Shown in pieces: positions 11,606 through 57,203 of a stretch of 64,000 nucleotides of DNA (position 1 is the first letter of the stretch; every line of letters starts with the position of its first letter). The notes beneath the pieces were generated by a model. That model searched no databases. It was not told where the DNA came from and saw only the letters and a program-made list of their open reading frames with translations. A program made the translations under genes and the position numbers. The DNA comes from Camelus ferus (taxonomy: Eukaryota), in the NCBI RefSeq assembly GCF_009834535.1, contig NC_045696.1, forward strand, positions 14,076,001-14,140,000, written 5' to 3'.

Positions 11606-11761
11606 ATGTGCGGCTACTACGGAAACTACTATGGGAGCCGTGGCTATGGCTGCTGTGGCTGCGGAGGCCTGGGCTGCCGTTGTGGGTCCTGCTATGGCTG
11701 TGGCTTCCGCAGACTGGGCTGTGGCTGTGGCTGTGGCTCTGGCTTTGGCTACTACTATTGA
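11606..11761 (+). CDS. KRTAP6: KRTAP6-family HGT keratin-associated protein, copy 1 (51 aa, Cys-enriched variant)
   Basis: Hand translation: [57 protein letters not shown] context, TATAAT at 11523-11528, AATAAA at 12051-12056. The GFRRLGCG core and YYY end are typical of KRTAP6. Paralog number not assignable. Confidence 0.93.
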   Translation: MCGYYGNYYGSRGYGCCGCGGLGCRCGSCYGCGFRRLGCGCGCGSGFGYYY

Positions 11762-12589
11762 GGACACCATGGAAGACCTCATCCTCTACAACTGGACTCC
11801 AGGATTCCCGGATTCTAAACCCCTCAAAGCCTGTGCCTTTCCCTTGGGTTACAAGTAGCCTGAATCTTAGAAGTTTACTATGATCTGTTGTTGAACTACT
11901 ATCTAACCTAAAAATTCCCTGAATTTGCCTCATGAAGTGGGAGATGGTGAAACTCACCCGTGACTGTACAGTTTTGTTTTCATCAGGATGATGGTGTTAT
12001 GGCAACTGCTTTAATGACACTCATGCTGGAGCTTGTTTTTCTGTTGACCTAATAAAGTTGTTCAATCTCAACAGCAATCTTGGTTTGGGTGTCAGTTATT
12101 TGATGTCCCAAGTATCTTACTGACATGTTTTGGGTTCAGTTGGCAAGAAAGGTAACAATTGTATCCTTAAGGAGATATTTCCTATTATTATTTCTAAGTC
12201 AGCTTCTTGACCCATTGTCAACTGTCTTGAGAAATTAACTTACTTTTTGTAAACTTTTGTTTCCTTCTCTGCTACTAAGAGAATGAAATTTGTTATGCTG
12301 GTTAACTCTCAACACTAAATACATTCTTATTTATAAACTCAGTGAAAGATTGTAAAAATAAAAATAATACTTTCCCAATTTTCATATTCATATATCTCTT
12401 ATAATAAGTGAATGTTGTACTATCCTTCTGTACTTCAAATACCTTTTTAAAAAATATTTTGATGAAAGAAACAATCTAAGAAATGTCTTTATAATCTATT
12501 ACATCCTAAAGTAGTAGTTGATTATAAAGCTATTTTTCCTACATAGTGGGCCAGAATAATTATGTAAAAACTACATTTCTTTTACATAC

Positions 12590-13075
12590 TGAAAGTTTCA
12601 AGGTCTCATAATGCAGTAGCCAAGGTGTTGGTCAGATCTGTGGTCTCATCTGTGTCTCAGAAGATGAAAAATCTGCTTCCGAGTTTACCTACTTGGCAGA
12701 ATTTCATTCCTTGTGGTGGTATAACTGATGGGCTCAACATTGACTGCTGGTGGGAAGTCTTTGCTGGAGGCCAGCTTCAACTCCAAGAAGTTACCTATAT
12801 GTCCTTGACATGTGGGTTCCCAAATATGGTAGCTTGTTTTCACAGAACCAGGAAGGGAGGGAAGACACTCCAGCAATATGCGTGCTACAAGCCCATATAA
12901 TTCTATATAACAGAATCACAAATGCACAATCATATATACTTTGTTACAATTGTCATATTCAATTGGTTAGAAGTAAGTTGCAAGTCTTGCCCACAGTCAA
13001 GAGGAGGGTATCACACAGATCACTGACATCAAGAGGCAGAAATCATGGTAGCACCTTAATTGTCTGCCCACCACT
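12590..13075 (-). mobile_element. ERVL-MaLR (MLT1-type) LTR; shorter paralogs at ~22154-22510, ~39711-40100, ~48921-49310
   Basis: 'ttggcagaatttcattccttgtggt...aactga' and 'ttggttagaagtaagttgcaagtcttgcccaca' are antisense MLT1 hallmarks. Confidence 0.75.
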
Positions 13076-13574
13076 GATAGCATGTTGTACATCCTTCCAG
13101 TGAGAATTAGGAGTTTTCCCTCATTTGCAGTGCTCTGGAACAATTTATAGAACATTTGGAGTATCTTGTCATTGAAAATTTGGTAGAATTTCCCTGAATA
13201 ATTATCTGGATCTGCAATATTTTGTAGAGTATTTCTTTAATAACTTTTTTTGGTTTCTTCGAGGAAATCAGTCTCTTTATAATTTCTAAACATAATGGTG
13301 TCAATTTCATTAATCTGTATTTCCCTAGAAAATTCCCTATTGTATCTAGATTTTCAAATTTATAGCAATAAACATCTGCAAAATAGATTCATACAGTTTT
13401 TTAAACTTCTTGTTTTCGTGTTTATTTCTCTTTTGTCTTTTTCTTATTTTGTATATACTTCCTATTCAGTTTTTGCCTTGACAAAGTGATTTATCAATGT
13501 TAAGCTTTTCAAATAGTAGCATTTTAATCATTTTTAAGGTCTATTTTTTTCCTCTTATCTATTTTGTTAATTTT

Positions 13575-17045: not shown

Positions 17046-17207
17046 TCAGTAGAAGCCAGAAGACCAGTATCTTCCATAGCAGCATGGGTGGTAGCAGGCA
17101 TAGCCATAGCCACCGTAGCCACAGCCACCGTAGCCACATCCATAGCCACATCCCAGGCCACCATAGCCATAGCCCAGGCCACCACAGTAGTTGTTGTAGA
17201 AGCTCAT
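17046..17207 (-). CDS. KRTAP22-1: KRTAP22-1-like HGT protein, copy A (53 aa)
   Basis: [53 protein letters not shown]. The MSFxNNY start, GYGYACYxP and antisense position between KRTAP6 genes fit KRTAP22-1 as recalled; KRTAP20 is the close alternative. TATATAA(-) at 17283-17289, ATTAAA(-) at 16772-16777. Confidence 0.88.
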
Positions 17208-18180: not shown

Positions 18181-18204
18181 CAACAACAACAACAACAACA
18201 ACAA
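18181..18204. repeat. (CAA)8 microsatellite
   Basis: Counted directly. Confidence 0.9.
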
Positions 18205-18469
18205 CACTACTAATAAACAAATATGATGAAATAAAAATCCATGGTTAAGAGCATAGTACAAAGTTCATTTCTTTGGTTTGATAAACTTACTATGGTTATG
18301 AAAGATGTTCATATTAGGTGACATTAAGTAAGTAATGTGTATAATACAATTTTTGTGTCATCTTGGTAACATTCAGTAAATTTAAAATTATTTCAATATA
18401 TGAAGTTCAAAATAAATATAAAATTGCTCTTCCATTTCATTGATTTGATCATCTATGACTTCTTCATAC

Positions 18470-36340: not shown

Positions 36341-38929
36341 ATGTGTTATCATTTCATATGTGTTATCATTAACACATATCATTTCATATGTGTTATGCAT
36401 TGTTTTTTCTGTGTCTTTGACTACGTAAGACAATCCTCTGTTTATCTTGCCTGGTGCTGTTCATAGAATTCTATGTCAAAACTTTGTGTAACTTTATAAT
36501 GGTTATTTTAACAGTTGCAGTAATAATTAAAAACCAATTATTAGTTGTATATCATGGGGCAACTGCTGTGTGAAGTAGCTTATGTGCACTATCTCACATA
36601 ATCCTCAGACCAACCTTAAGATGTGATAAAATTCTCTCCATTTTACTACGTCAAAAAAGTAAGGGTATGAAGTAACTTACTCAAGGCACAAGTCTCAAAA
36701 CCACATGCTTTTTTGCCTCTTTGTATAGAAATATAAATTATTAATGTTTCTCATAATGTCTAAACTAAATATTTGGGAAGATCAAATTTATGTTTTGGAA
36801 CTTCCCTTCCTAAAAATCTTTCATTAAATGTTCTCCTGCTCCTTTTCCCTCTGTCACTTTTTTTGTGAAATTCTTACTCTCCTATATTGAATACCTAGAA
36901 TTTATTCTGCATAGCTCACATTTTTGTATAATTTTTATCTATTTACAATTTTACTCCAAATTCTAAGAGAATTTCTGAATTTTGCACCGTACCCTGTCTC
37001 ACCTCATATTACTGGCTTAGCATTGGAATGGATATTTACTTTGGGAAATTAGCTCTTTCATGACAAACAAATATTTCCTTTTTCCGTATTTTGCGATTTG
37101 CCTGTAGATCTGTTAGACATTTATAATTACATGGCTCTTAAATATTATAAAATCTAAAATGAAAAAATATGTCAAAATATTCTTTCTAACAGCACTATTT
37201 CAAAAACTGGGCTCATTCTGAGTCCTCTGATTGATCTCCTAATTTTGAATAGCTGGTTATTTTCCTGTAGTTCTATTCTTAAAAAGATTGTCCCAAGCAA
37301 ACCCAGTAGTGAGACTAAAGATTTATTCTACTAAAATTTATGCATGTTCATATGTAAAGCTCTCATACAGAGACAACTTTAAAGAAAGATATTTAGATTT
37401 TTTTGGTTTCAGTTTGCCTAATTAGGAGTATCCATTATTCTTGAGGGAGACATCAGTTCATCAGAAAGAGCTCACTGTTTATAACACCATATAAAAGACT
37501 TTGTGTATGTATTTTACTCACTTCCCTTTCATCTTCTCCATAGGTGATCTTTTCTTTATTCTAAAAGGAAGCTTAAGCTACTATTTTTTTCTTTCATCCA
37601 ACCTTTTTGTAGGTACGTCAGCAAGCAACATTTTAAGATTCTTGTAGGAGATACTAGTTGGTGCCTCAGCCATATTCCTCTGTGTTAATCATTTCAGTCA
37701 TGGTGGTGTTCCCCTACTGCAAGTCCTTAAGACATTGTGAATGAGGGTTTTCTCCCTGAAAGTAGCAAGATTTGATGGTCCTGGAAGTGCACCTCCCCAG
37801 CTCTCAGTAGAAGAGCAGCAGGTGCACACACACACACACAGAAACACACACACACAAGCACAAGAAGTACCCACAAATATTCATACAGCACACATACATT
37901 CACACAAATAAATGATGTAAATAAAGGAATGCACATTTAGAACTATGCTTCTAAAGGAAAGATAAAATTAGAGTAGTTTTCTAAAGGAAAATTCATGGTG
38001 ACTATGTGCAGACAAAGAGTAGTACTCATTTTATCCTTAGCTACTACACTCTACTGATTCCTAGGGGTTGATTTTTCTTGGAACATAAAATTTCAGAGTG
38101 TTATTTGACTTAACATTTAAATTCAACTATAACCTTCATTGCAGTGATCATTATCATCATCACCATCATCATCTGTATTTTTATATCTTTCACATTATGG
38201 GATACATTACCAAGAGCATGTTTGGTAGGCAAAATCTAGCAGGTTCCATGAAAGATGTCTCTGCCAGTATTATTGTTTTAAATAAAGAAATGCCACAGTC
38301 ACCTTTCAGCCAGATCACAAAGGATACAAATATGTAAATTTTGAAAAAATTATTTCATGAAAAGGTGATTTCATAAATCAAAATCTCATCATTCTATTTA
38401 TTTCTAAATGTGGATTCAGGGTATAAACTTGAAACCATGGGGGAAAACATGTCATATTATAAAGATGGAATGGTAAAAATTTACAAAATATAAATGTAAA
38501 TGAGAAAGAAAAGTCCCGTTTTTTCAGGGCTGGTGTTCCAGATTATCAAACTATTTGCTTTTTTTGTCAAAAGCTTCATGAAGCTGAGTGATAACTATAT
38601 GGCTTTTAGTAGTAAACCATCTCTCATGAGAAAAAAAGAAAAAATCCTATAGAAAAATAATAGATTTGGAGAGAAGGTAATAGAAGGAAAAGTTCAAAGT
38701 TAGGATTGAATACTATAATCTGTTGAATGTCAATAAAAAGAAGGTAAATTTATTGTTTGTCTGGAGCAGCTCAGAATTTGTCAATAAAAATGCTATTTAT
38801 TGACATAAAGATTAATTACAGAAGGATAATTTAAAGATCTCATGAATAAGGCTTTCAGGATGAGACAATTGATTCTCTTAATGGCCCACAGACTGGTTCA
38901 GATATGCTAAAACAAAGCATTATTTCCTC

Positions 38930-39132
38930 ATTGCCTTTGAAGCTATGATTAAACCTGTGTCAACAAATTACTCACATCAGTCCGGAAAATCAGCCCATGA
39001 CATGACCACATGTGGATTCCACTCACACTGAGGACATATAAAAGGCCCTCTGCAGGGAGACATGTCCACCCTGAAGTGACACTTCTACTCTCCTTCTCTA
39101 CCCAAGGACAACCTCAATCCAACACCAACACC
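38930..39132 (+). promoter_or_regulatory. KRTAP6 copy 4 promoter (copy-1-related upstream part, type-b TATA/5'UTR) with CTTTGAAG
   Basis: CTTTGAAG at 38935-38942 (LEF1/TCF consensus); TATAAAA at 39037-39043. Confidence 0.6.
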
Positions 39133-39348
39133 ATGTGCGGCTACTACGGAAACTACTACGGGGGCCGTGGCTATGGCTGCTGTGGCTACGGAGGCCTGGG
39201 CTGCGGCTACGGGTCCTGCTATGGCTGTGGCTTCCGCAGACTGGGCTGTGGCTATGGCTGTGGCTATGGCTTTGGCTCCCGCTCTCTCTGTGGCTGTGGC
39301 TATGGGTGTGGCTCTGGCTGTGGCTCTGGCTTTGGCTACTACTATTGA
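39133..39348 (+). CDS. KRTAP6: KRTAP6-family protein, copy 4 (71 aa, long form)
   Basis: The true start is ACC-ATG at 39133 inside track ORF 39010..39348. TATAAAA at 39037-39043, AATAAA at 39633-39638. Confidence 0.95.
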
Positions 39349-42300
39349 GGACGCCATGGAAGACTCTCATTCTCTCCATCTGGACCTCAGGATTCCCCAT
39401 TCTGAACCTCTCATGTTCTGTGCCTCTCTCTTGGGTGATGATTACCCTCATCGTGGAAGTCTAGTATGGTCTGCTGTTGACCTACCAATGAACCTACTAA
39501 TTTCCTGAATTTACCTCATGAAGTGGGAGATGGCGAAATTCACCTGTGGCCTCAGAGTTCTGCTTTCATCAGGGTGATGGTGTCAAGCAACTGCCTTGAC
39601 TTTCACGTTGGAGCTTGTCTCTCTGTTGACCTAATAAACTTCTTCAATCTAAACAGAAAAACTGGTTTTATGGCAGTTATTTGATGTCCAACATCACTTA
39701 CAAACAGTGTTTTGGCAGAATTTCGTTCCTTGTGGTTGTATAACTGAGGGCGTCAGCATTGACTGTTGGCAGGATGCCTCTGCAGGCTGCCTGCTGGAGG
39801 CCACTCTCAGCTCCAGGAGGCGGCCTGTAGTTCCTTGCCATGTTGGTTCTCAAATACAGTTGTTTGCTTTCTCCAAGCCAGGAAGGGAGGGAAAGCTACT
39901 ACAGCAAGATGGGAGCTACAATCCTATATAATTTTGTGTAACAGAATCACATACACACAATCACATGTATTTTATTACTTTTGTCATATTCTGTTTTAGA
40001 AGTGAATAGAAACTCTTGTCCACACTCAAGACAAGGGCATTACTAGGGCATTGATATCAAGAGGCAGAAATCATGAAAGCACCTTAATAATTTGCCCACC
40101 ACATGTATTGATAGCAATACAAGTTACGCTCATTTGCAGTGCTGGGGAACCATTTATAGAACATCAAATTATTCTACATCTGAAGATTTGGTAGAATTTC
40201 CTTGAGAAATTATCTGCATCTGAAATATTTTGTATGATATTTCTGTAATGGCTTTTTGTTGTTGTTGTTTCTTCTAAGGAATCAGTCTCTTTATAAATTC
40301 TCAGTATAATGGTGTGAAGTTTGGTAATCTGATTCCTTTAGGAAATCATCTGTTGCATCTAGCTTTTCAAATTTATATCCTTAAAGATCTGCAAATTGAT
40401 TCATATCATTTTTAAAACTCCTTGTTTCCATGTTTATTCTACTTTTGTTATTTCTTATTTTGTTAATGCTTCCTTTTTTTTTTCTCATGATCAAATTAGC
40501 AAGATTTAAAATGCTAAATTTTTCAAATAGTAGCATTTTGAATCATTTAAAAAGTCTATTACTTTTTTCTCTTCTAATTTATTAATTTATGCTTCTCTGT
40601 TTATTACTTTGCAAATTCTTTGGTTTCCACTTCATTTTTCTTTATGAAAATTTTTTTAACCTGGGATATTAACTTATTTATGTTATTTCTTTCATTTTTA
40701 TTAACAGAAGTATTCAGTGCTATGAATTTTGCACTAATTACTGCTTGAAGTTTTCTTGTAGATTCTGTTAAGTACTATTATTATTACCACTATTTATTTG
40801 AAAATCTATAATCTCATATTATATGTTCTCTTTCAGATGAGAGTTCTTTAATCAAAGATTTAATCTCCAGGTGAACAGGATTTTTTATCTTTAGTTTTTG
40901 TTAACAATTTTTAGCTTTAAAGCATAACAATCAGAAAATGTTTTCAGCAGTATTAATTGTAAACCCTACCAATAATGTGTTTGTGACCTAATATATGATC
41001 AATTTTTTATGTATTTTCTATGAAAGGTTGAGAAGTTTGTTCTCTACTACCTGTATAGAGGTGAATATACATCCCTGAAAACTAATTATACTAATTAATT
41101 ACATTTTTAGGTCTTCCCTCTTTTTACTTATTTTTTTTCTTTTTTGATATGTTTGTTCTGAGTGATATATTAAATTTGTCCATTATTACTACTGTGTTTC
41201 TATCTAATTTTCCTTGACAGATAGAGCTATATGTATGTGTTCTTCATAAAAATGGGGTCTGTTTTTAGTAAATAAATAAAATACTCAGAAGTGTAATATA
41301 TCAATTGCTAGATATTGCTTTGGAGAAAAATATTGGGGGTTAAATTACTAGGCTACTGCCATTTACTTCCATTACCCATGTTTATGCTGTATGAACATTT
41401 AATAGAATTTACCAGTAAATATTTCTGAGCCCAGATTTTTCATTTTGCAAAGGTAATTTTAATTATAAATTCACTTTCTTTACCAGTTATGGTACTATTC
41501 TGATCTATTTGAATTCCTGCTGATAATTTTTATATTTAAAAGAAACTTTTCATTTCATTTATGTTGTGAAATTTATAGGCAAAACATTCTTCAAAAGATC
41601 CACTTATTTTGGAGCCAGTTGAATCTAAAAGGTGTTGCTTCTTTCATTTTTCAGATTGATAATTTGTATTCTCTATTCTCGATTCTTTATCAGTTTTTCT
41701 AGGTTTTATCAATTTTATCTGACCAAAGTGCCTTCTGTGAGTATTGCTGATTTTCCTATCATTTATTCTTTTTCTATTGAATTGACTCCACTCATGTCTT
41801 TATTTTTCCTTCATCCTTCTTACATTATGTTTAAATTTCTCTTCTTTATAGATTTTTAACAAATCTTAGAGCATTGATTTTTTAAATGTCCTTTTTATCT
41901 AACATAATTAAAGGTACAAATTTTCCTCTAATCACTTCTGCATTGGTAAATCTACATTTGTTATGTTGCATTTCATTATGAATCACTTTAAGATAGTTTT
42001 CAATGCCCCATATGATTTCTTTTTTATTTCACGTGTTATTTAGAGGGAGTTATATCCAAATTCAAGAAGTCTCTGTCCTTTTGTAATTAACATTCTCCTA
42101 TCCCATCCAGGGATATCCTGGCAGTGAGGGAGACAGGTGGGAAATCTCGCCATGTCAGTCCTCCACCAAAAAGACATGGACCATTGAAATTCTTTCTGTA
42201 CTTTCAGGAGCCATGACAGGGAGCAGTGGGACAACCAGTGGTCAGGATCAACCAAACAGACCAAAAGAACACTGCAACAACTCTGAAAATTATGAGTCAC

Positions 42301-44267
42301 AGCTCACAATGCCCATATGCTAAATCTAAATGAGGTGACTTACTGTTTTTTTTAAAAGATTTAAATAGAATCAAGATGCCTTGAACACACAAAATTACTT
42401 TCATATCATCATATCACCAAATAAGAAAATTACAACAGAATGAGAAAGACAGTCAACTGCAGTTAACACAAAGTTAATCAAATATTCAAATTATCTGACA
42501 AAGATTTTAGACTAGCCATCCGAAAAATATTTCATTAATCAAATTTTCTTAAAAATATATATTTGTTTGCAATCAGTAACCATTAGAAAGCTAGAGTGGA
42601 TATAATAATACTAGATTAAATAAACATAGAAACAAAATATTTTAACAGAGAGGGAAGAATATATTGTAATGATAAATGTGGCAATCTATCAGGAAGTTAC
42701 AATGATTTTAAATTCCTATATACCTAAAAACAGAGCTCCATTACACAATAATCAAAAAATTGACAGAATGAAAAGGGAAAGAGATTGCAATAATAATAGT
42801 TGGAGGTTTCAATATCCCCCTTTGAATAACGGATAGAACAACTATACAGAAAATTCTAATATAAATAGTTGAAGAACTCTATAAAGCAGCTGGACCTGGC
42901 ACTCCTCTAGTGAACACCCAGCAAAAAGAGAGCGCAAATTTCTCTCAAGTGCACGTGTAGAACGTTCTCCAAGATAGACCATATGCTAGGTCAGAAAGAA
43001 CAAAGTAATTTTTAAAAGTTGAAATCACACCTAGTCCATGTATAGTCTGCCTTAAGCTGACGAGGGAAGACATGTCTACATAATTATTCCCCATTGATGG
43101 TTCCAGAAAACATGCATTTGGCCTCCCTCATACTCTGATCCTTTTTCAGAAAGTAATTGTGTATGGACTTGCTTTGAGTCTTAGGTCCCATTAATTCTAA
43201 CATTACTTACTAAAAAATAATAGATATTGAGGTGTATTTTATCACTGTTGACAGTATTACTAATACTTAATAATAGTAAATGGACTGAAGTAAGTAAAGT
43301 TACTATGAACAGCTTTATTGAACATTACTCAGACTACTAGAATCAGGGACACAATTTGCAGCCTATATTCTGGGTCAGATTTATGCTAGCATGATTTTAG
43401 TCGACGAAAGCCACTGCCTTGTTATGAAGCATAATAGATCTCTTTCCAAAAGGCAAGTGAAGACTGACTCTTGAAAATTTCACTGAAAATGGCCTCGATT
43501 CTACTGCTTCCTGTGACAATGAGAGAATAAAAGAAAGCCCTCTGTGCAGCTACAGTGCATAAGATGAGTTCAAGTACTTATTATCAAGGAGGAAAGGAAC
43601 AGGCAGTAATATAAAACTGAGAAGGAAAAGTTACATCCTTCCAGAGCGTATTCAAATACTAAGTATCAGGAAAGGATGAGATATTTAAAAAAACAGCATT
43701 AAGTGGTGAAAAGAGCTACCACCTTCCTGATCTCTTTAGTCAAACTTTGGCTGTTTCAAACATAAAGATTTGATGAAATCAAGGCAGACAACAGTAGATC
43801 TTGGATATGTTCACAAAAAACACATAATAGAAAAGCACTAGTTAAATATAACTTTTCATCCGCACATATAAATTGTCGACTATAGAGAGTGAAAGATCCA
43901 GCCATCTCACACACAACTCACAAACACACATACACATACAATCACAAGAAATCTACATAAATAAATATGCATGAAATTATTATACATGTGAAAAACAGAA
44001 TAACTTTAATGAAAAATCAATTTTGACATTTTCCCAAAATGTAAATGGTTAAGATTGTATTCAGTTAGTAACATAGATCAAATGAATATTTTTCTAAATG
44101 GTTGGACACTCAGGCAATTCCATCAAAAAAGGTCTGCTGTTGCATGGTACTCTAAGCTTCAGTAGTCATTACTGAACAGACAAGAACATCCTTATTACAA
44201 TTTGTGCAGGAGGTACCCATGGTGCCTCATCAGAGAACATCCTGAACAGATGAGCATCTAGAACTTC

Positions 44268-44414
44268 TCAGTAGAAGCCAGAAGACCAGTATCTTCCATA
44301 GCAGCATGGGCGGTAGCAGGCATAGCCATAGCCACCATAGCCACATCCATAGCCACATCCCAGGCCACCATAGCCATAGCCCAGGCCACCATAGTAGTTG
44401 TTGTAGAAGCTCAT
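44268..44414 (-). CDS. KRTAP22-1: KRTAP22-1-like protein, copy C (48 aa)
   Basis: [55 protein letters not shown](-) at 44491-44497, ATTAAA(-) at 44005-44010. Confidence 0.88.
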
Positions 44415-47400
44415 GATGTGAGGATAAGGAGGCTCAGTTGAAGGGCAGAGTCACTTTCTAGAGTCTTAAATTTATAGTCTGCCCAGGGCCTTATATACCA
44501 ACAGAGTGGTATGTGGGGCAAACCTAAGTCACTATTGGACTCATATTTTAAACTCATTAGCATGAAGACCATCTCAGGAATTCTTCAAAACCAATATATC
44601 CAAGCCAAGACAACTCTGTTGTGTGTCACGATGCCTATCGTGAAATCATGTGCCTTTAATGAGAGATTCTTCTCCTAATTTGGTGGCTTGTTTATTCTAG
44701 ATTCCAAATTTAAACTATATTCTATCTGCCATGTGTCCATATAACTCCAGTAGAGTCTACCTATTGAAAATCTTAGTTTCATTCAATAATTTCCTCCTTC
44801 TATCTGCATATATGCAGCCTTGGGAATGAATGTGTGGCTTCAAAGTACAAAAGGACAGTGGAAAATTTATGGAGAAGACAGGAATGAAGATGCGTGGAAG
44901 GCACAGAGATGACTTGACAAGGTTCAGTTGTAGATCTTTGAGTGATGAATTTGTTTGTTAATTTTCTGGAGCAATATTATTGACTTCGACTTACAGTGCA
45001 TGTATTCATGCATCTGTGATTTGATAAATGATTAAAAACCATGATATAGTTCCTTTAGTTTATATCCATGAACCATGATTATAGTAGAAGTAAAAGGATT
45101 TATTCTATTAGTAATTTGAGCTTAACAATCTATTTCAGAAACTGTCAAAGATTTAGTGACATCTTGAACCTCCTGTTATAACACAATGAAATAGGCACGA
45201 CTCTTCTGTATTTTGCCCAAAATGCATTACTTCAACATTGTTATGAGAAAACAGACATACTCAAACTGAGGAACATACTACAAAACTTTCGGCTCTTTGA
45301 AATTGTCAATGCCATAAAACTTAAAGACTGAGAAATTGTCACTAACTGGAGAAGCTAAAGACAAGCAAAACCCTTGTGGGATCTTGGACTGGATCCTGGA
45401 ATAGAAAAATGACCATTTGTGGAAAAAATATGAAAGTCAAATAAAGTCTCTAAATTGCTTAAGAATATTGTACAAGGCTAATTTCTTAATTTTTACTTGG
45501 TTATGAAGGATATTAACAGATATAACTGATTAAATGGTATATGCATACATGCTATATATTTTTGCAACTTTTGACAATTCCAAAATTATTTCAGAATAAG
45601 AAAGTCAGAATAATTTTTAGATAATCCTTGATTGCATTGATTCAGTCACTTATTAAATTCTTTCATACATCAAAACTTTCAGAATCAATTGTATGTTCGG
45701 CAATGTTATCTGCATTGGGGATGGAGCCGTGAACAGGACAGACAAGGTTCCTATTGTCATGAAGCTTATAATCTGAAATGTGCAAGTGCAGAAAATGCAG
45801 GCAAAGATCTGAAAGCAAATTCTCAAAGTGAATGATATAATTAATTTCTGATAGAGTTGAGTCTATTTAAATGTTAAATTAAGGCAAAATAAGGCAATTT
45901 TAAGAAGTATTGGTGAGAGTTTACTTCAGAAGGGATGGTCAGGGAAATTCTCTGAGAGATCCAAGGAAACAGAGAATTCTAGCCGTTGTGCTGTTACTTG
46001 CAAGGGTCAGTAACTCAAATGTAGCAGCTTTAAGTTGGAAACAAACTTGGCACATCTGAAGAGCAGAGAGGCCATTGACTTTTGTGTACCATAAGGAGAC
46101 GAATAGTGTTACAAGACGTACTCATAGAGGTGGTCAAGGCTATAACGGGGTAAACCATAAAGGCTGTGCTTCCTATGGTGTGCGTTGCCAGACACAGCGA
46201 ATACAAATACTGAACACTCAGATACATTTGATTTTCAGAGAATCATTTTTTGTACAGGTGTAGCCTATGAAATGTTTGGAAAATTGGATATTCTGAATTT
46301 CAGTATTTTGAAATTGAAATTTAGCTGGTGTTTTGTGTAATCTAGGACCCTTAATGTGGAAAGCAATGGACTATCACTAGGAGGGTCCACTTCTGATTTA
46401 TGTCTTGCATGCTTTACGATGTAGGAAAAAAGGTGGGGGAAATGTTTGGGGATATGAAGAGTCACGAACTCAGTTTCATTTTGTAAAATTTTTGAAGAAA
46501 TTAACAATCTAAGAGGGTGTCAAGTTATCATTTGGGTAAATATCAGACTTTGTTTTGCACAAAATAATATATTTTATGGCTACTTTAATCAAATACTAAC
46601 CCCTGAAAAGAAACCCAAGTCAGTTATAGTCTTTTATATACTGAGTGAGGCAAATTAGTCACACCAATTTCAGGTGATATTTTAAGAACATAAATAATCT
46701 TGAGGAAGATGGATCATCATGTTATTTAGTGGTTTTTTCTTTTTTTACTGGAAACTTATTCTAAGTTATCACTTGATTGACTTGATTTTGTGATAGTTGA
46801 GGCTACTTTTATTTTCTGTATGGGAAATTTGAAAATGATAGAGTGATGATTTGTAGTTCTAATAATGAAATTTTAATGAAAATGATTTACAGGATTTTTT
46901 GTAATTCTAATATTTGACTTCAGCAAATGGTGAATAAAAGTCACAAGACTGTATCTATTGTACAAACAAACAAACAAAAAAAACCCTACTGAATATACAC
47001 ATGGAAAAAGCATTCAAAAACACATACTGAATGAACAGATGAATGTGTTTGGTCAGATCCTCAGTATGAAAACATTCTGCTTTACTAAGAAGGATGTTTT
47101 GAGTTATTAGATATACTTCTCAGGAGAGATGAACTGGAAAATTTTAAAAGTCTTGTAGCTTCATTCTTATGATCTCCAGAGGAGAATTGGCTAAAATATA
47201 GGGGGTGTCGTACATTGCTACTCTCTGTCCCTTTCTAAGGTTATGAGAAGATGTAAAGATAACATTTTGACTCAGAAATATCAATAGTATAACAGAAACC
47301 TACTGATAGATTACACATGTATTTGTGGATAATGCCACCTCACCACATGCATTCTCTTAAAGACACAAAGTACATTTTAACTAATATGAACTAGTCTCAC

Positions 47401-48393
47401 TTTTCTGGTGCCTCACAATGGGAGGGGTTATAACACAAATTTGAAAAAAGACAGGAATAATGCTAGGACTATGCAAGAGAACTCACTGTAGGACTATGGA
47501 ACAGCACTCAGTGTGACTGGTACAATGTGAGTCATGACTGAACATACTGATTAAAACACAGACCTCTGTTTAGTACGTTGATAAATGTAGATATGTGATG
47601 TTACCCTATTGGCCATTTAGAATATAGTTCTAATATTAATGTGAAAACTAACTAATTTGCATGAAGGTATACTCAATTTAGAAAAACAAGTGGAAAGTGG
47701 AGAAACTGGATTTCAAAGACTCACTTCTGTTTTGCCGTCCACCAGCAGAAATTGAACAATAAGTGTTTGGACTCATCAGCATAAGTAAAAAAGTACAATA
47801 CATCTTGCTCACACTGGTTTTTTGGGGGAAATTTTAATTAGTTGGATTATTATCAACATCATGATGATGAGACATACACTATGGTGTCAATATCAAAACG
47901 TAATTGAATCCTTGAAGGAGGTACTCAGTTTGGATCAAAAAGAAAATTCCACAACTCAGAAGGACTGTTAGTCTGATGAAGAAAAATTTAATGAAACTTG
48001 GGCCAAGAGCAAATAAGAGTATGGTTAAAAAATGTCATCTCTGTGATATAAAGAATGGTTCCAGGAAGTTAAAATGAACGTGTAATTTTGGGCCTGAATG
48101 CATAGATGTGAGTGGGTAGCTCCTTTATTCAAACCTCAGTGGCATAAGAGGAGACCAAACTGAGAAACCAAGACAGCAAGCTCCCTGAATTTCTCTGAAG
48201 CTTTATCTTATGGTTTAGGAACAACAAACTAATTAGATTAGTCATAAAGTTTGGCAACGTCATGAAGGTGTGGTGGGTCACACCCACACTGAGGACATAT
48301 AAAAGGCCCTCTGCAGGGAGACATGTCCACCCTGAAGTGACACTTCTACTCTCCATCTCTACCCAAGGACAACCTCAACCCAACACCAACACC

Positions 48394-48561
48394 ATGTGTG
48401 GCTACTACGGAAACTACTATGGGGGCCGTGGCTATGGCTGCTGTGGCTACAGAGGCCTGGGCTGCGGCTATGGGTCCTGCTATGGCTGTGGCTTCCGCAG
48501 ACTGGGCTGTGGCTATGGGTGTGGCTCTGGCTATGGCTCTGGCTTTGGCTACTACTATTGA
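48394..48561 (+). CDS. KRTAP6: KRTAP6-family protein, copy 5 (55 aa)
   Basis: [62 protein letters not shown] at 48298-48304, AATAAA at 48842-48847. Confidence 0.95.
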
Positions 48562-51500
48562 GGATGCCATGGAAGACTCTCATCCCCTACACTTGGACCT
48601 CAGGATTCTCCATTCTGAACCTCTCACGTTCTGTGCCTCTCAATTGGGTGATGATTACCCTCATCATGGAAGTCTAGTATGGTCTGTCGTTGACCTACCA
48701 TCGAACCTGCAAATTCTCTGAATTTGCCTCATGAAGTGGGAGATGGTGAAATTCACCTGTGACCTCAGAGTTCTGCTTTTTTCAGGATGAGGGTGTCAAG
48801 CAACTGCCTTGACTTTCATGCTGGAGCTTCTCTGTTGACCTAATAAACTTGTGCAATCTAAACAGAAACACTGGTTTTACATCAGTGGTTTGATGTCTAG
48901 CATCACTTACAAAAAGTGTTTTGGCAGAGTTTTGTTCCTTGTGGTTGTATAACTGAGGGCCTCAACATTTACTGTTGGTGGGATGTCTCTGCAGGCTGCC
49001 TGCTGGAGGCCACTCTCAGCTCCAGAAGGCTACCTGTAGTTCCTTGCCATGTTGGTTCTCAAATATGGTTATTTGCTTTCTCCAAGCCAGGAAGGGAGGG
49101 AAAGCTACTCCAGCAAGATGGGAGCTACAATCCCATACAATTTTATGCAACCGAATCACGTACACACAATCACATGTATTTTATTACTTTTGTCATATTT
49201 CATTATTAAAAGTAAATAAAAACTCTTGTCCACACTGAAGACAAGGGCATCACTAGGGCATTGATACCAAGAGGCATAAATCATGAAGATACCTTAATAA
49301 TCTGCCCACCACTTCTATTCATAACATCACAAGTTTCCCTCTTTTGTGGTGCTGGGGAACCATTTATAGAACATCAAATTATTCTACCTCTGAAGATTTG
49401 TTAGAATGTCTCTGAGAAGTTAAATGGATTTGAAATATTTTGTGTGGAATTTTTTTATTGTTGTTTCTTCTAAGGGATCAGTCTCTACAATTCCTCCATG
49501 TAATGGTGTCAAGTTTGGTAATCTGTATTCCTTTAGAAAATTATCCATTGCATCTAGGTTTTGTAATTTATATCCTTAAAGATCTGCAAATTGATTCATA
49601 TCATTTTTAAAACTTCTTGTTTCCATGTTTATGTTTCTTTTTTTATTTCTTATTTTGCTTATGCTTCTTTTTCTTTTTTTCCCATGATCAGATTTGTAAG
49701 TGATATATAAATGTTAAACTTTTCAAAAAGGAGCATTTTGAATCATTTAAAAAATCTATTACTATAAACTCTTTTCTAATTTATTAATTTATGCTTGTCT
49801 ATATATTACTTCCTCCTTTGCAGTTTCTTTGGTTTCCACTTCATTGTTGTTAATGAAGTTTTGTTTTAACCTGGAACCTTAACTATTTATGTTCTTCCTT
49901 TCATTTTCACTGACAGAAGTGTTCAGTGCTGTGAATTTTTCTCTAATTACTGCCTGAAGTTTTCTTGCAAATTCCAAGTAAAATTTATCATTACCATTAT
50001 TTATGTGAAATTCTATTATCTCATTATTTTCTCCTTCAGCTGGGAATTTTTTAATGAAAGATTTACTCTCCAGGTGAACAAGATTTTCTGTCTTTTGTTA
50101 GCAATTTTTACCTTTAAATCATAACAATCAGAAAATCTTTTCGACAGTATTTGCAGAAAACCCAACAAATAGTTTGTGACCTAATATATGATTAATTTTT
50201 TGTGTGTTTTCTATGAAAGCTTGAGAAGAAGGTATGCTCTCTACTGTCTGAATAGAGGTGAATTTACATCACTGAAAACTAATTAAACTAAATAATTACA
50301 TTTTTAGGTCTCTCTTTTTACTTACTATTTTCTTTTTGATGTGATATATTTGATCAGAGTGATACAGTAAAATTCTCCCTTGTTACTAGTGTATTTCTAT
50401 CTAATTCTTCTTGATAGATCTACTTATATGTATTTTTCATAAAAATAGCTTGCTTTTAGTATATAAATAAAATACTCAGAAGTGTAATACATGTATCACT
50501 AGTTATTGCTTTGCAGAAAAATATTGGCATTAAATTCCTAAACTACTGCTATTTTCTTATATTACCCATAATTATGCTGTATGAATATTTAACAGAATTT
50601 AACACTGAAGACCTCTGAGCCCAGGTTTTTCCTTTTGCAAAGGTAATTTTAATTATAAATTCACTTTATTTATCAGTTATGGTACTATTCTGATTTATTT
50701 GAATTAGTGTTGGTAATTTGTGTGTTTTAAAAAAAACTTTTTATTTCATTTATGTTGCGAAATTTATGGGCAAAACATTCTTCATAAGATCCACTTATTT
50801 TTGGAGCCAGTAGAATCTATAAGGTGTTGCTTCTTTCATTTTTAAGATTGATAATTTGTATTCTCTCTTCAATATTCTTTATTCATTTTTCTAGATTTTA
50901 TCAATTTGATCTGTTCAAAGTTCCTTCTTTGAGTATTGCTGATTTTTCTATCATTTATTCTTTTCTATCGAATTGATTCCACTCATGTCTTTATTTTTCT
51001 TTCATTCTTCTTATTGTATACTTAAATTTCTCTTCCTTCATAGATTTTTAACAATACTTAGAGCATTGACTTTTAAAATGTCCTTTCTTTTCTAATATAA
51101 TTAAAGGCACAAATTTTCCTCTAATCACTTCTGCATTGGTTAAGTCTACATTTGTTATGTTGCATTTCTTTATTAATCACTTTAAAATATTTTTCAATGT
51201 CCCATGTGATTTCTATTTTACTCTATATGTTTTTTAGAGGGAGTTATGTCCAAATTCAGGAAGTCTCTGTCTTTTTGTATGTAAGACTCTCTTATCCCAT
51301 CCAAGAGACATCCTGGCAGTGAGGGAGACAGGTGGGAAATCTCACTATGCCACTACTCCACCAAAAGACATAGAGGACATGGGCCATTGAAACTATTTCT
51401 GTACTTTCAGACAGCAATGGCAGGGAGCAGTGGGAGAACCAGTGGTCAGGAAAAACCAAATAGATCAAAATAACACTGCAACAACTCTGGAAACTATGAA

Positions 51501-51951
51501 CCATAGCTCACAAAACCAATGTGTTAAATCTACACATAGTGACTTACTGCTTTCTTAAAAAAAAGATTTAAATAGAACCAAGATGCTTTTAATACACAAC
51601 ATTTCTCTCATACCATCATGCCAAGAAATAAGAAAATTAAAACTCAATGAGAAAGATAATCAACTGCAATTAACACAAAGTTAACCAAATATTCAAATTA
51701 TTGAAACAAATTTTAGAGTAGCCATCATAAGAATGTTTCAATAATCAAATTCTCTTGAAAAAACATACTTGTTCTCAAACAGTAACCACTAGAAAGCTAA
51801 AGTGGATATAATAGTACCAGATTAAATAGATATTGAAAGAAAAAATTTTAATAGAGAGGGAAGAATATATTGTAATCACAAGTGTGGCTATTTATCAGGA
51901 AGATACAATGACTTTAAATTCATATGTACCTAACAACAGAGCTCCATTGTA

Positions 51952-52100
51952 GTGGGAGGGTGTAGCTCAAGTGGTAGAGCTGCGTGCTTAGCTTGCAGGG
52001 GACTCTGGGTTCCATCCCAGCACCTCCTCCAGAAATAAATAAATTATTAGTGCTCCCCCCAAAAATGTTTAAAATAAATAAAATTAAATTAAAAAAAAAA
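51952..52100 (+). mobile_element. tRNA-derived SINE, camelid Vic-1-like
   Basis: Box A (tagctcaagtgg, 51963-51974), box B (ggttccatccc, 52008-52018) and an A-rich tail. TSD agagctccatt(g/a)ta at 51938-51951 and 52101-52114; empty site in U3 at ~42732. Confidence 0.9.
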
Positions 52101-53675
52101 AGAGCTCCATTATACACAAATCAAAAAATTAACAGGATGAAAAGGGGAAGAGATTGCAATAATAATAGGCAATGCAATAATAGTAGGCAATAATAATAGT
52201 TGGAGGTTTCCATATCCCACTTTGAATAATGGATAGAACAACTACACAGAAAATTGTAATATAAATAGTTGAAGAACTCTATAAACCAACTAGACCTAAC
52301 ACACATCTAGTGAATACCCAACTACAAGAGAACACAAATTTCTCTCAAGTATGCATGTAGAATATTCTCCAAGATAGACTGTATGCTAGGTCAAAAAGAA
52401 CAAATTAATTTTTAAAAATTGAAATCATACATAGTCCCATGTATAGTCTGTCTTAAACTGACGAGAGAAGACATATCTACATAATTATTCCCCATTGATG
52501 GTTTCAGAAAACATGCATTTTGGCCAGCCTCATACTCTGATCCTTATTCAGAAAGTAATTGTGTTTGGGCTTACTTTGAGTAGAGTCTTGGAGGTACTCT
52601 AAACTCTAACATTAGTTACTAAAAATTCACAGATATTATTGATTTATATTTTATCATTGTTGATATTGTTACTAATACTTAATAATAAATGGAGTAAATT
52701 AAGCAAATTAAACAGGTTTATTGAACATTACCCAGACTACCTACCAGAATCAGGGATACAATTTGCAGCCTATATTCTACATCAGATTTATGTTTGCATG
52801 ATTGTAGTCTACCAAAGCCATTGCCATGTTATGAAGCATAACAGATCTCTTTCCAAAAGGCAAGAAAAGATTGACCCTTAAAAATTTCACTGAAAATGGT
52901 CTCAATTCTATAACTTCCTGTGACAATGTGAAAATTACAGAAAGCTCCCTGTGCAGCTACAATGCATGAGATGGATTCAAGTGCATATTGTCAATGAGGA
53001 AAGGAACAGGCAGTAATATAAAATTGAGAAGGAAAAATTACATCCTCCCAAAGCCTTATTCAAATACTAAGTATCAAGAAAGGATGAGACATTAAAAAAT
53101 AGTATTAAGTGGTGAGAAAAAAAAGTACCATCTTGCTAATGCCTTTAGTTCAATTTTGGATGTCTCCAAGATAAGGCTTTGATGAGATCAAGGTAGACAG
53201 TTGTAGACCTTGGATATGTTCACAACAAACACATAATAGAAAAGCACTGGTTGAATATAACTTTTCATCCGCACATATAAATTATCAACTATAGAGAGTG
53301 AAAGACCAACCTTCTCACACACAACTCACAAACACACATACACATACAATCACAAGAAACCTACATAAATAAATATGCACGAAATTATTATACATGTGAA
53401 AAACAGAATAACTTTAATGAAAAATCAATTTTGACATTTTCCCAAAATGTAAATGGTTAAGATTGTATTCAGTTAGTAACATAGATCAAATGAATATTTT
53501 TCTAAATGGTTGGACACTCAGGCAATTCCATCAAAAAAGGTCTGCTGTTGCATGGTACTCTAAGCTTCAGTAGTCATTACTGAACAGACAAGAACATCCT
53601 TATTACAATTAGTGCAGGAGGTACCCATGGTGCCTCATCAGAGAACATCCTGAACAGATGAGCATCTAGAACTTC

Positions 53676-53822
53676 TCAGTAGAAGCCAGAAGACCAGTAT
53701 CTTCCATAGCAGCATGGGCGGTAGCAGGCATAGCCATAGCCACCATAGCCACATCCATAGCCACATCCCAGGCCACCATAGCCATAGCCCAGGCCACCAT
53801 AGTAGTTGTTGTAGAAGCTCAT
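53676..53822 (-). CDS. KRTAP22-1: KRTAP22-1-like protein, copy D (48 aa, CDS identical to copy C)
   Basis: Nucleotide-identical to 44268-44414 by eye. TATATAA(-) at 53899-53905, ATTAAA(-) at 53413-53418. Confidence 0.88.
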
Positions 53823-56800
53823 GATGTGAGGATAAGGAGGCTCAGTTGAAGGGCAGAGTTACTTTCTAGAGTCTTAAATTTATAGTCTGCCCAGGGCCTT
53901 ATATACCAACAGAGTGGTATGTAGGGCAAACCTAAGTCACTGTTGGACTCACATTTTAAACTCATTAGCATGAAGACCATCTCAGGAATTCTTCAAAACC
54001 AATATATCCAAGCCAAGACAACTCTGTTTTGTGTCACGATGCCTATCGTGAAATCATGTGCCTTTAATGAGAGAGTCTTCTCCTAATTTGGTGGCTTGTT
54101 TATTCTAGATTCCAAATTTAAACTATATTCTATCTGCCATGTGACCATATAACCCCAGTAGAGTCTACCTATTGAAAATCTTAGTTTCATTCAATAATTT
54201 CCTCCTTCTATCTGCATATATGCAGCCTTGGGAATGAACGTGTGGCTTCAAAGTGGAGAAGGACAGTGGAAAATTTATGGAGAAGACATGACAAGGTTCA
54301 ATTGTAAATCCTTGAGTGATTAATTTGTTTTGTTACTTTTATGGAGCAACATTATTCACTTCCATTTATACTGCATGTATTCATGCATCTATGATTTTAT
54401 AAATGATCAAAAACCATGATATAGTCCCTTTAGTTTATATCCATGAACCATGATTATAATAGAGGTAGAAGGATTTATTCTATTAGTAATTTGAGCTTAA
54501 AAATATACTTTAGAGACTGTTAAAGATTTACTGACATCGCGAACCTCTGTTATAAAAAAATAAAATAGGCATGTCTCTTCTAGTATTTTGCCCAAAAGGC
54601 ATTACCTCAACATTGCTATAAGAAAACAGACATACTCAAATTGAGGAACATACTACAAAACTTTCAGCTCTTTGAAATTGTTAAAGCCATACAACTTAAG
54701 GGCTGAGAAACCCACTAATTTGTGGAGGCAAAAGCCATATCGGATCTTGGATTGGATCCTGGAATAGAAAAATAGACATCAGAGGAAAAATATGAAACTC
54801 AAAAAAGTGTGTAAATTACTTAAGAATATGGTGCAAGGTTAATTTCTTAATTTTTCCTTGGTTATGAAAGATATTAATATAATATAAATGCTGAACACCC
54901 AGATACATTTGATTTTCAGAGAAAACAATATTTTGTACTGGCATACCCTATGAAATGTTTGGAAAATTAGATATTCTGAAATTTAACTGGGTGCCTTGTA
55001 TATTCTAGGATCCTTAATGTGGAAAGTCATTAATGGACAATCACTAGGAGGGTCCATCTCTGATTTATGTCTTGCATGCTTTATCATGTAGAAAAAAAGG
55101 TGGGGGAAATGTCCGGGGGTATGAAGAGTCATGAACTCGGTTTCATTTTGTAATATTTTTGATAAAAATTAACAATTTAAGAAGATGTCAAGTGATCATT
55201 TGGGTAAATATCAGACTTTGTTTTGCACAAAATAGTAATATCTCTTATGGTTACTTTAATCAAATACTTCCCCTCTCCAACCAAAAACAAAAAAAAAAAC
55301 AAACAAAGAAAAAACCAAGTCAGTTATAGTCTTTTATAAATCGAGTGAGGCAATTTAGCCACACCAATTTCAGGTGATATTCTAAGAACTTAGATAACCT
55401 TGAGGAAAATGGATCATCATGTTATTTATTGAGTTGTTATTGGAAACTTGTTCTAAGTTATTACTTGATTGACTTCATTTTGTGATAGTTGAGGCTACTT
55501 TAATTTTCTGTATGGGAAATTTGAAAATGATAGAATAATGTTTTGTAATTCTAATAATGAGATTCTAATGAAAATGATTTACAGATGCTTTATAATTCTA
55601 ATACTTCAACTCAGCATTTGGTAAATAACATTCACAATATTATATCTGCTTATTCTATTTTACACAAAAACTCCTACAAAATACCCACATGGAAAAAAAT
55701 TCAAAAACATACGCTGGATGAATAAATGAATGTGTTTGATCAGATCTTTAGTATGAAAACATTCTGCTTTGCTAAGAAGGATTTTTCTGAGTCATCAGAT
55801 ATACTTCTCAGGACAGATGAATTGGAAAATTTAAAAAATCTGGCTTCATTCTTATGATCTCCAGAGGGGAACTGGCTAAAATATAGGGGGTGTCCTACAT
55901 CTGCTACTCTCTGTCCCTCTTTAAGGTTATGAGAAAATGTAAAAATAATATTTTGACTCAGAAATATCATTGGAATAACAGAAATCTACTGATAGATTAC
56001 ACATATATTTGTGGATAATGCCACCTCACCACATACATTCTCTTAAAGACACAAAGTATATTTTATCTGTGATATGAACTAGTCTCACCTTTCTGGTGCC
56101 TCCCAATGGGAGGAGTTATAATACTGATTTGAAAAAAGACAGTAATAATGCTAGGACTATGCAAGAGAACTCAGAGTGACTGGTACAATGTGAATCGTGA
56201 TTAAACATATTGGTAAAGAACCAGACCTGTGTTTAGTACATTGATAAATGTAGATATGTGATGTTACTCTATTGGAAATTCAGAATATAATTCTAATATT
56301 AATGAGAAAACTAATTTGTATGAATGTATAGTCAATTTAGAGAAAAAACAAGTGGAAATTGGAGAAATCAGATTTTGAAGAATAACTTCTGTAAGCAGTC
56401 CTCCAGTAGAAACTGAACATGAGTTTTAGACTCATTGGCGTAAGTAAAAAAACATACATTTTGCTCAGACTTGTTTTTTCTAGAAATTTTGATTAGTCAG
56501 ATTATTATCAACATCATGTGTATTAGAGATACATTATGGTTTCACTATAGAAAATAATTGAATCCTTGAAGAGGATACTCAGTTTGGATCAAAAAGAGAA
56601 AAATGCAGAAGTCAAAGGACTGTTAGTCTTATGAAAAAAAAATAGTGAAACTGGGGCCCATATCAAATAAGAGTGAGACTAAAAAATATCATCTCTCTTG
56701 ATAAAAAGGATGGTTCCCAGAGGTTAAAATGAACGTGTAATTTTGCGCAGGACTGTGTAGGTGTGAGTAGCTGTCTCATTCAAACCCTCAGTTGGATAAG

Positions 56801-57041
56801 AGGAGACCAAACTGAGAAACCAAGACAGCAAGCTCCCTGAATTTCTCTCAAGCTTTATCATATGGCTGAGGAACAACAAATTACATTAGTCATAAAGTTT
56901 GGCAACGTCATGAAGGTGTGGTGGGTCACACCCACACTGAGGACTTATAAAAGGCTCTCTGCAGGGAGACATGTCCACCCTGAAGTGACACTTCTACTCT
57001 CCTTCTCTACCCAAGGACAACCTCAACCCAACACCAACACC

Positions 57042-57203
57042 ATGTGTGGCTCCTGCGGAAACTACTATGGGGGCCGTGGCTATGGCTGCTGTGGCTACGG
57101 AGGCCTGGGCTGCGGCTATGGGTCCTGCTATGGCTGTGGCTTCCGCAGACTGGGCTGTGGCTATGGCTCTGGCTATGGCTCTGGCTTTGGCTACTACTAT
57201 TGA
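57042..57203 (+). CDS. KRTAP6: KRTAP6-family protein, copy 6 (53 aa)
   Basis: [60 protein letters not shown] at 56946-56952, AATAAA at 57490-57495. Confidence 0.94.

Follow-up and report, generated by a model that had tools for sequence, protein, structure and literature searches.

An array of KRTAP6 and KRTAP22-1-type gene pairs in Camelus ferus, probably copied at three times and kept alike in their cores by gene conversion

The array described here probably consists of old camelid KRTAP6/KRTAP22 pairs which were copied at three times and whose cores have been kept alike by gene conversion. It was analysed in a window of 64,000 nt (GCF_009834535.1, NC_045696.1 positions 14,076,001 to 14,140,000, forward strand), to which all coordinates below refer, and probably corresponds to the KRTAP6/KRTAP22 section of the glycine-tyrosine KRTAP cluster on camelid chromosome 1. 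The presumed building block is a head-to-head pair of a K22 gene (−) and a K6 gene (+), which unequal crossing-over presumably duplicated in tandem on three occasions. One or two of these would fall at the artiodactyl base or earlier, and the latest perhaps 33–35 My ago in the camelid stem, before the camel/alpaca split. Some K22 partners would later have died, leaving three relics, and the surviving cores, from the TATA box to the 3′UTR, may have been overwritten repeatedly by non-allelic gene conversion, such that the proteins remained near-identical while the spacers drifted. The genes most likely contribute additional small Gly/Tyr/Cys-rich matrix protein to the hair cortex, a predicted effect of dosage that presupposes their expression.

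Gene content and family identity

Ten intact frames from ATG to stop, six of the KRTAP6 and four of the KRTAP22-1 type, were found in the order and on the strands given by a previous sequence-only reading. K6a (11606-11761, +, 51 aa) is followed by K22a (17046-17207, −, 53 aa), K6b (21626-21781, +, 51 aa), K22b (26753-26920, −, 55 aa) and K6c (31702-31923, +, 73 aa), a long-form KRTAP6 with an SRSLCG segment, and then by K6d (39133-39348, +, 71 aa), also of the long form, K22c (44268-44414, −, 48 aa), K6e (48394-48561, +, 55 aa), K22d (53676-53822, −, 48 aa) and K6f (57042-57203, +, 53 aa), whose N-terminus reads MCGSCGNYY. Each K22 gene is flanked by K6 on both sides, and eight of the ten proteins are, as claimed, shorter than 60 aa. 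The K6-to-K6 periods along the array are 10020, 10076, 7431, 9261 and 8648 bp; the head-to-head gaps from ATG to ATG amount to 4419, 4782, 3980 and 3220 bp in array order, in agreement with the earlier view of a pair 3.2–4.8 kb apart as the unit. A TATA-like box of its own precedes each gene, for example TATATAA at −82 of K22a, TACAAAA in K6b and a TATAAT-like box in K6a, which has the most diverged promoter and an AATAAA 290 bp after the stop; with their variant boxes, K6a and K6b would be expected to be the weaker genes. Bidirectional promoters are defined by divergent starts at most about 1 kb apart; this arrangement was rejected for the K22/K6 pairs in view of their gap lengths and separate boxes. 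Self-BLAST revealed kilobase-long collinear blocks of 72–88% identity (E near 0), far beyond chance. The four units of ~9–10 kb read previously are, however, related to one another to unequal degrees and fall into three age tiers.

The ten products are single frames of 48–73 aa with a Gly+Tyr content of 53–63%; high glycine-tyrosine KRTAPs are characterized in the accessible part of PMC10487131 as small, intronless and containing 35–60 mol% Gly+Tyr. All ten match Pfam PF11759 (KRTAP; E≤0.003), nine of them above the curated cut-off and K6a below it (score 18.7 vs 21.1), in a scan in which K6d was entered minus its first residue and K6f with two extra N-terminal residues. From the KRTAP6 motifs given in the available text of PMC4820716, the C-terminal GSGFGYYY is present in all six K6 proteins and the N-terminal MCGYY(G)NY (printed MCGYYNY) as MCGYYGNY in five, with MCGSCGNY in its place in K6f. 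A search with the K6b protein returned two matches among ten candidates, a horse KRTAP6-1-like protein (93%) and an unnamed peccary protein, and is uninformative on camelid K6 counts; the orthology of KRTAP6-2/6-3 was judged ambiguous by others, too, in the accessible part of bioRxiv 2020.11.15.383638.

In a FastTree analysis of the four K22 proteins of the window together with matches of ≤80 aa among P0001-P0135 (P0123 left out), K22a–d all fall inside a 32-tip clade with KRTAP22-1 of sheep, pig, cat and alpaca (support 0.93), apart from the KRTAP19/20 types. KRTAP22-1 is described in the available part of PMC5295022 as a protein of 47–48 aa encoded between KRTAP6 genes; K22c and K22d have 48 aa, and K22a and K22b are longer (53/55 aa) through short repeat insertions. 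The family names initially proposed are supported. The nearest named protein of K22c is an alpaca KRTAP22-1-like protein (98% identity), which bears out the assignment to a probable camelid. Whereas the exact K22b protein is present in the public collection searched (P0005), those of K22a and K22c/d were not found there, and the description of the genes as easily missed is accordingly appropriate for the latter and not for K22b. Named Camelus proteins suggest further K22-type copies beyond the window. Many members of the KRTAP22-1 clade carry the NCBI label '20-2-like'.

The window also contains three dead K22 remnants. A K22-like pseudogene (60713..60843, +) with an early frameshift and an in-frame stop, oriented opposite to K22a–d, is about 60–62% identical to them over 500–750 bp including flanks. 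A K22 3′ flank without its coding part (10436..10661, −) lies about 950 bp upstream of K6a (nhmmer E 6.6e-18; no nhmmer match in the reversed-window control). The third relic, again of a K22-type 3′ flank (37645..37990, −; 346 bp, partly GT-rich), is located upstream of K6d and, in an alignment of 356 columns, shares 62% with the pseudogene's 3′ flank (blastn E 5.9e-20, nhmmer only E 0.011); for these 346 bp, the 7 kb stretch between K6c and K6d can no longer be termed unique. A weak candidate for a glycine-tyrosine KRTAP remnant, perhaps KRTAP21-like, is found at 6260..6384 (+), with GTG for ATG and a frameshift (tblastn best E 0.003, nhmmer E 0.34).

Divergence tiers and related layouts in other mammals

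The spacers fall into three tiers of divergence with K2P distances of 0.14–0.16, 0.22–0.31 and 0.36–0.5. The youngest duplicated units, K6d-K22c-spacer and K6e-K22d-spacer (39012..56840, +), are 84–88% identical, and their K2P distance of 0.14–0.16 over about 6 kb of gap-free spacer (A3/A4 0.155, 0.135–0.170; B3/B4 0.144, 0.123–0.164) is roughly half that of tier 2; these units 3 and 4 cluster together in all three trees (support 96–100). Spacer B2 is 0.215–0.227 from B3/B4, A1/A2 are 0.28–0.32 from the others, and B1 is separated from the others by 0.36–0.39 according to HSPs and 0.44–0.57 according to MAFFT. Duplication of a whole trio (K6a–c versus K6d–f) was rejected as the sole model, as the similarity of K6a to K6d extends over only about 200 bp upstream, that of K6c to K6f is short and restricted to the 3′ side, and B3 is closer to B2 than to B1.

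At the camel mutation rate of 1.1e-8 per 5-year generation given in the accessible part of PMC7305198, the youngest duplication would be about 33–35 My old, compared with a camel/alpaca split at about 16.3 Ma (PMC12337305, available part), and tier 2 is dated to 49–72 My. Tier 2 could predate or postdate the camel-pig split; its placement is uncertain because the dates depend on one assumed rate, and ages would be underestimated if spacers had been converted and overestimated if local mutation had been fast. Neither tRNA-type A/B boxes nor dispersed repeats for SINE dating were found in the units of the window. A clock-free comparison is offered by a pig-type K22 3′ flank (P0123, a 93-residue read-through), which at the protein level and over <300 bp of flank matches K22c/d in 58/87, K22b in 53/92 and K22a in 47/89 residues. 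The camel paralogs a, b and c/d match each other in 53–62 of 88–93 residues (K22c/d 92/93); the pig-type flank is consequently about as near to K22c/d as K22c/d is to K22a and K22b. The duplications other than the youngest thus appear to be of about the age of the camel-pig split or older, and on this comparison only the last one would safely qualify as camelid-specific.

Related layouts are contained in published gene tables, from which the likeness between species was read as order and spacing. In the accessible tables and text of Khan et al. 2014 (PMC4180150), alpaca is credited with nine KRTAP6 genes, one of the highest mammalian numbers (pig 4, cow 5, horse 4, rabbit 9, tarsier 8) and linked to fibre in their discussion. 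On alpaca GeneScaffold_2149, six genes of 141–147 bp on the opposite strand are interspersed among eight K6 rows, an alternation also seen in the camel window. The alpaca list forms two mirror-image blocks, whereas the window has one orientation; with the second block reversed, the spacings agree (alpaca 3969 and 4933 bp vs camel 3979 and 4971/4919 bp), whereas the candidate KRTAP remnant at 6260 and the first alpaca pair (5459 vs 5284 bp) would favour the first block. The short alpaca genes are filed as KRTAP20, and the accessible material contains neither a KRTAP22 class nor a description of units, their dates or tracts of conversion; we infer that they are of the K22-1 type from their sizes, strand and spacing in a table without sequences. 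Some K6 rows of this old table are 0.5–0.8 kb apart and look like assembly doubles.

According to the same tables, pig and horse have one and bat two of these short opposite-strand genes among their K6 rows. Pig already combines a K6 period of ~10 kb with an interleaved opposite-strand gene of 147 bp, the K6 period of cow is 10–11 kb, and pig, bat and horse show the camel layout in a smaller version (PMC4180150, accessible supplements). In sheep and goat, the available parts of the literature describe a chromosome 1 KAP6-KAP22 region with five KRTAP6 genes of near-identical coding DNA and diverged flanks (PMC4820716, PMC5295022, PMC8657448, PMC11591541, PMC10487131, PMC12523863), with KRTAP22-1 between two KRTAP6 genes and concerted evolution named for KAP6. 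Two KAP22 genes are described there, compared with four intact ones plus relics in camel, and the camel K6 proteins differ from sheep and goat KAP6 in being mostly short forms (51–55 aa). K22-type genes are thus, as previously supposed, more numerous in the camel than listed for sheep, goat, pig, horse and bat. The human 21q22.1 glycine-tyrosine domain likewise places KRTAP22-1 among KRTAP6 genes, but has three K6 and one K22-1 and no tandem series of pairs. Among the papers searched, which include few from subscription journals, none was found that describes the camelid genes as KRTAP22-1 copies; the accessible parts of PMC4839604, PMC6598621 and bioRxiv 2020.11.15.383638 do not describe the array, and the alpaca chr1 KRTAPs in PMC6598621 are KRTAP13-1, 13-2 and 7-1 only.

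The sequence-only reading had considered the array as a single lineage-level amplification. The camelids separated from other artiodactyls about 60–65 My ago, and the tier-2 dates could just postdate this split. If a single K22/K6 pair had been amplified in the camelid lineage to give the entire array, under selection for fibre, this would also conform to the KRTAP6 excess of alpaca over pig, cow and horse, to its six short genes and to the description of two KAP22 genes for sheep and goat. We nevertheless consider this origin unlikely. Spacer B1 is 0.36–0.57 from the rest, the pig flank is as near the camel paralogs as they are to each other, the K6 period recurs in pig and cow and the interleaved gene in pig, and high KRTAP6 counts are also found in rabbit and tarsier. 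The excess in alpaca was, moreover, already in print. The youngest step is twice the age of the camel/alpaca split and so has no link with a particular breed or with domestication traits.

Homogenised gene cores

Sharp islands of identity stand out from these diverged spacers. The tract around K22c (43905..44830, −) and its partner around K22d (about 53313-54238) differ at 11 of 926 aligned bases, 11/779 in non-coding and 0/147 in coding DNA, vs about 13.5% in the spacers. The non-coding tract of K6b/K6f has 13/294 differences against a background of about 24%, and K6c and K6d differ at 11/381 positions although their upstream DNA is unalignable, K6d jumping from unrelated to 95% identity with K6c at about −113. 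The best tract of K22b and K22c is devoid of a non-coding part; the binomial P values refer to tracts chosen after the fact. As judged from these comparisons, gene conversion appears to explain the alike promoter-plus-coding cores best.

Alternatively, purifying selection and codon bias might have preserved the cores. Coding identity alone is indeed insufficient to argue for conversion, because the K22 proteins are widely conserved among mammals (88–94%, bats and carnivores included); the genes use a restricted set of codons, and promoters can be constrained. However, the 3′ 300 bp are 99% identical between K22c and K22d and only 81–88% between other K22 pairs, so that selection does not hold this flank at 99%; together with the abrupt switch in K6d, this renders the selection reading improbable. 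Conversion of the cores accords with the birth-and-death and concerted evolution of KRTAP families, with tandem duplication, pseudogenes and species-level homogenisation, as outlined in the accessible parts of PMC2528016 and PMC4180150. Both surveys, which used coding sequences, found conversion scarce, with fewer events in glycine-tyrosine than in cysteine-rich KRTAPs, and KRTAP6/KAP6 was not found in the available gene-conversion file of PMC4180150, whereas the flank-aware comparison of the camel array gives clear islands in K6 and K22. Sheep KRTAP6-2 and 6-5 likewise have identical coding DNA and diverged flanks (PMC4820716, available part).

An entire array already present in the artiodactyl ancestor, with copies lost elsewhere and kept in camelids, would be compatible with the deep divergence of units 1 and 2, the two K22-type proteins of warthog and, weakly, a single site, the Y8C variant common to K22a, P0121, P0128, P0027 and all four short suid/peccary proteins; this reading is quite improbable, as units 3 and 4 are only 0.14–0.16 apart and would need an old conversion over the whole 9 kb. 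A false duplication or a polishing that made copies alike, which the 99% identity of K22c/K22d over about 900 bp and the apparent doubles of the alpaca table might evoke, is hardly credible given that the units differ by 12–28% along kilobases and that 17 of 24 listed runs (two species labels, seven studies, one maybe the window's own source; X18-X20 left out for small shares; no RNA run among them) hold 0.84–0.90 of the sampled words of 39000–48700, a span with unit 4 outside.

Implications for camelid fibre genetics

The array is a real, modest camelid variant of the known birth-and-death evolution of an often reshuffled cluster, and involves no new kind of gene or mechanism. We regard as doubtful a more far-reaching scenario in which camelids have at least six KRTAP22-1-type genes, unannotated or labelled KRTAP20, the K22/K6 pair is duplicated as a co-regulated dosage module, and ongoing conversion copies promoter and coding DNA jointly throughout the array, such that copy-number or conversion polymorphism would set the glycine-tyrosine share of the matrix and hence how fine or crimped the fibre of camels and alpacas is. 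The last duplication, being older than the camel/alpaca split, cannot alone explain breed differences. Within the glycine-tyrosine KRTAPs, for which coding-only surveys had reported little conversion, the array provides a clean case. Camelid fibre genetics obtains a corrected parts list, with four intact KRTAP22-1-type genes in the window alone. Since K22c and K22d are identical in their coding DNA and two of the proteins are absent from the collection searched, short-read SNP, RNA-seq and peptide assignments will multi-map, and the diverged spacers are needed as copy markers.

Gene content of the array

The ORF scan of the window reproduced the gene order and strands of the sequence-only reading for all ten Gly/Tyr-rich frames (K6+, K22−, K6+, K22−, K6+, gap, K6+, K22−, K6+, K22−, K6+). 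The KRTAP6-type frames on the plus strand are K6a (51 aa), K6b (51 aa), K6c (73 aa), K6d (71 aa, start 39133), K6e (55 aa) and K6f (53 aa, start 57042), the two starts being set by alignment; the KRTAP22-1-type frames on the minus strand are K22a (53 aa), K22b (55 aa), K22c and K22d (48 aa each). All ten match Pfam PF11759, nine above the cut-off, and carry a polyadenylation-type hexamer 215–291 bp past the stop. A canonical TATA box is found in eight genes; the corresponding position in K6b reads TACAAAA and the K6a box is TATAAT-like. TCATAAA, presumably resembling a HOXC13 site, lies 141–156 bp upstream of K6a, K6b, K6c, K6e and K6f and is lost in K6d; its window-wide frequency is 0.34 per kb and the promoter copies are not independent of one another.

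The published KAP6 C-terminal motif is present in all K6 proteins and the N-terminal motif in five of the six. In the protein tree, one clade of 32 tips takes in all of K22a–d along with KRTAP22-1 from sheep, pig and cat. The K22c search matched 166 proteins among 270 candidates (120 listed), with an alpaca KRTAP22-1-like protein (98% identity) on top among the matches listed. The public protein collection searched contains the exact K22b protein; exact K22a and K22c/d proteins were not found there. The label "keratin-associated protein 20-2-like" on many mammalian K22-1-type proteins hides K22 copy counts. A 48-bp segment retained in K6c, K6d and horse KRTAP6-1-like is missing from K6a, K6b, K6e and K6f. 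As most alpaca K6 rows in the table of Khan et al. 2014 measure 198–228 bp (PMC4180150), conversion or recurrent slippage may have spread the short form among the camel copies.

Lost copies and homogenised cores

A frameshifted K22-like pseudogene (60713–60843, plus strand) is oriented opposite to K22a–d; its TATA region is replaced by a short stretch (ca. 60585–60635) that may resemble an L1 3′ end. Upstream of K6a, a K22 3′-flank relic was detected at 10436–10661 (E 6.6e-18; no match in the reversed-window control), and upstream of K6d, at 37645–37990, a remnant derived from the 3′ flank of the pseudogene, weak by nhmmer. All six K6 genes therefore have, or once had, a head-to-head K22-type neighbour. 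Further copies beyond the window are suggested by protein matches: two dromedary proteins, P0121 and P0128, are each two residues away from K22c/d, and P0027, a 62-aa frameshifted K22-type protein annotated in two records (Camelus ferus/Camelus), has a tail unlike all four window copies and is possibly a K22 copy dying in Bactrian-type camels. Alternatively, the three proteins may be allelic variants or represent orthologous genes of a different Camelus species.

Units 3 and 4, the youngest duplicated pair (39012–56840), share 80–94% identity per 200-column bin, 94–98% at the K6 genes and 96–100% over ca. 1 kb around K22c/d, where 11 of 926 positions (−416 to +509) and no coding position differ. 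Tracts containing non-coding sites were found in eight of nine gene pairs examined, the exception being K22b/K22c; their P values are optimistic as the tracts were picked post hoc. In the K6b/K6f tract, 13 of 294 non-coding positions differ versus a background of ca. 24%, and in K6c/K6d 11 of 381 starting at −113, upstream of which the DNA is unrelated. Coding identity by itself is weak evidence for conversion because mammals in general conserve the K22 proteins. That the 3′ 300 bp homogenised in K22c/d reach just 81–88% in other K22 pairs speaks against selection alone as the source of core identity. Concerted evolution is named for KAP6 in a review.

Repeat structure and age of the duplications

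Self-BLAST revealed collinear blocks of 1.2–6.5 kb with 72–88% identity between units. An assembly artefact is unlikely because the units diverge by 12–28%; in addition, 17 of 24 listed sequencing runs under two species labels hold 0.84–0.90 of the words sampled from 39000–48700, the region covered by this check. About 670 bp of unit 3 (45528–46200) is missing from unit 4 (52095–55218 versus 42726–46550), which carries ca. 150 bp extra near 51948–52095; these length differences are serviceable as junction markers. Two microsatellites inside the array are possible copy-specific markers: (CA)19 plus a TC-rich stretch at 10347–10465, and (AAC)9 at 18179–18206.

The spacers fall into three divergence tiers (K2P): 0.155 (3864 gap-free columns) and 0.144 (2257 gap-free columns) for units 3 versus 4; 0.215–0.227 for head-to-head spacer B2 and 0.28–0.32 for tail-to-tail spacers A1 and A2; and, for B1 (K22a–K6b), 0.36–0.39 from HSPs or 0.44–0.57 from MAFFT, whose alignment is noisy there. 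Camelids diverged from other artiodactyls ca. 60–65 My ago. The camel/alpaca split is placed at ca. 16.3 Ma in PMC12337305. At the camel rate stated in PMC7305198 (1.1e-8 per five-year generation, i.e. 2.2e-9 per site per year), the tiers correspond to about 33–35, 49–72 and >80 My. A clock-free check was provided by the 93-residue tail of P0123, a read-through protein identical to pig KRTAP22-1 in residues 1–51. This tail shares 58/87 residues with the K22c/d flanks, 53/92 with K22b and 47/89 with K22a, the same range as the camel paralog flanks a, b and c/d among themselves (53–62 of 88–93), while K22c and K22d agree at 92/93. On this evidence, the last duplication alone can safely be called camelid.

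Comparison with other mammals

Coordinate comparisons with Khan et al. 2014 rest on supplement 2, parts 5–8 (PMC4180150). KRTAP6 counts in that paper are nine in alpaca and rabbit, eight in tarsier, five in cow and four in pig and horse, and the high alpaca number, an excess already published, is remarked on there with regard to fibre. On one alpaca scaffold, eight K6 rows are interleaved with six opposite-strand genes of 141–147 bp labelled KRTAP20; two K6 rows each have a twin 0.5–0.8 kb away, which may be assembly doubles. Pig shows K6+, a 147 bp minus-strand gene, K6+, K6+ and K6− (gaps 4483, 4883 and 9963 bp), cow three K6 genes spaced 10–11 kb, bat two interleaved short genes and horse one (PMC4180150). 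Two of five sheep K6 genes share identical coding DNA but have diverged flanks (PMC4820716). For sheep, two KAP22 genes are described.

Of the lineage-level amplification of a head-to-head pair originally claimed, the camelid K22 excess stands, because older published tables show no four K22-1 copies across cetartiodactyls; the layout and period, together with some of the copy history, go further back. In the literature covered, which lies mostly outside subscription journals, no description of KRTAP22-1 copies in camelids was found. The likeliest history is repeated duplication of a K22/K6 pair through unequal crossing-over between copies of K6, with loss of some K22 members; conversion would hold promoter and coding cores alike, and the outcome would be additional near-identical hair-cortex matrix proteins, as judged from family knowledge. 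A weak candidate for a Gly/Tyr KRTAP remnant (6260–6384, plus strand, GTG start, frameshift) occupies a position like that of two KRTAP21 pseudogenes upstream of the first bat K6.
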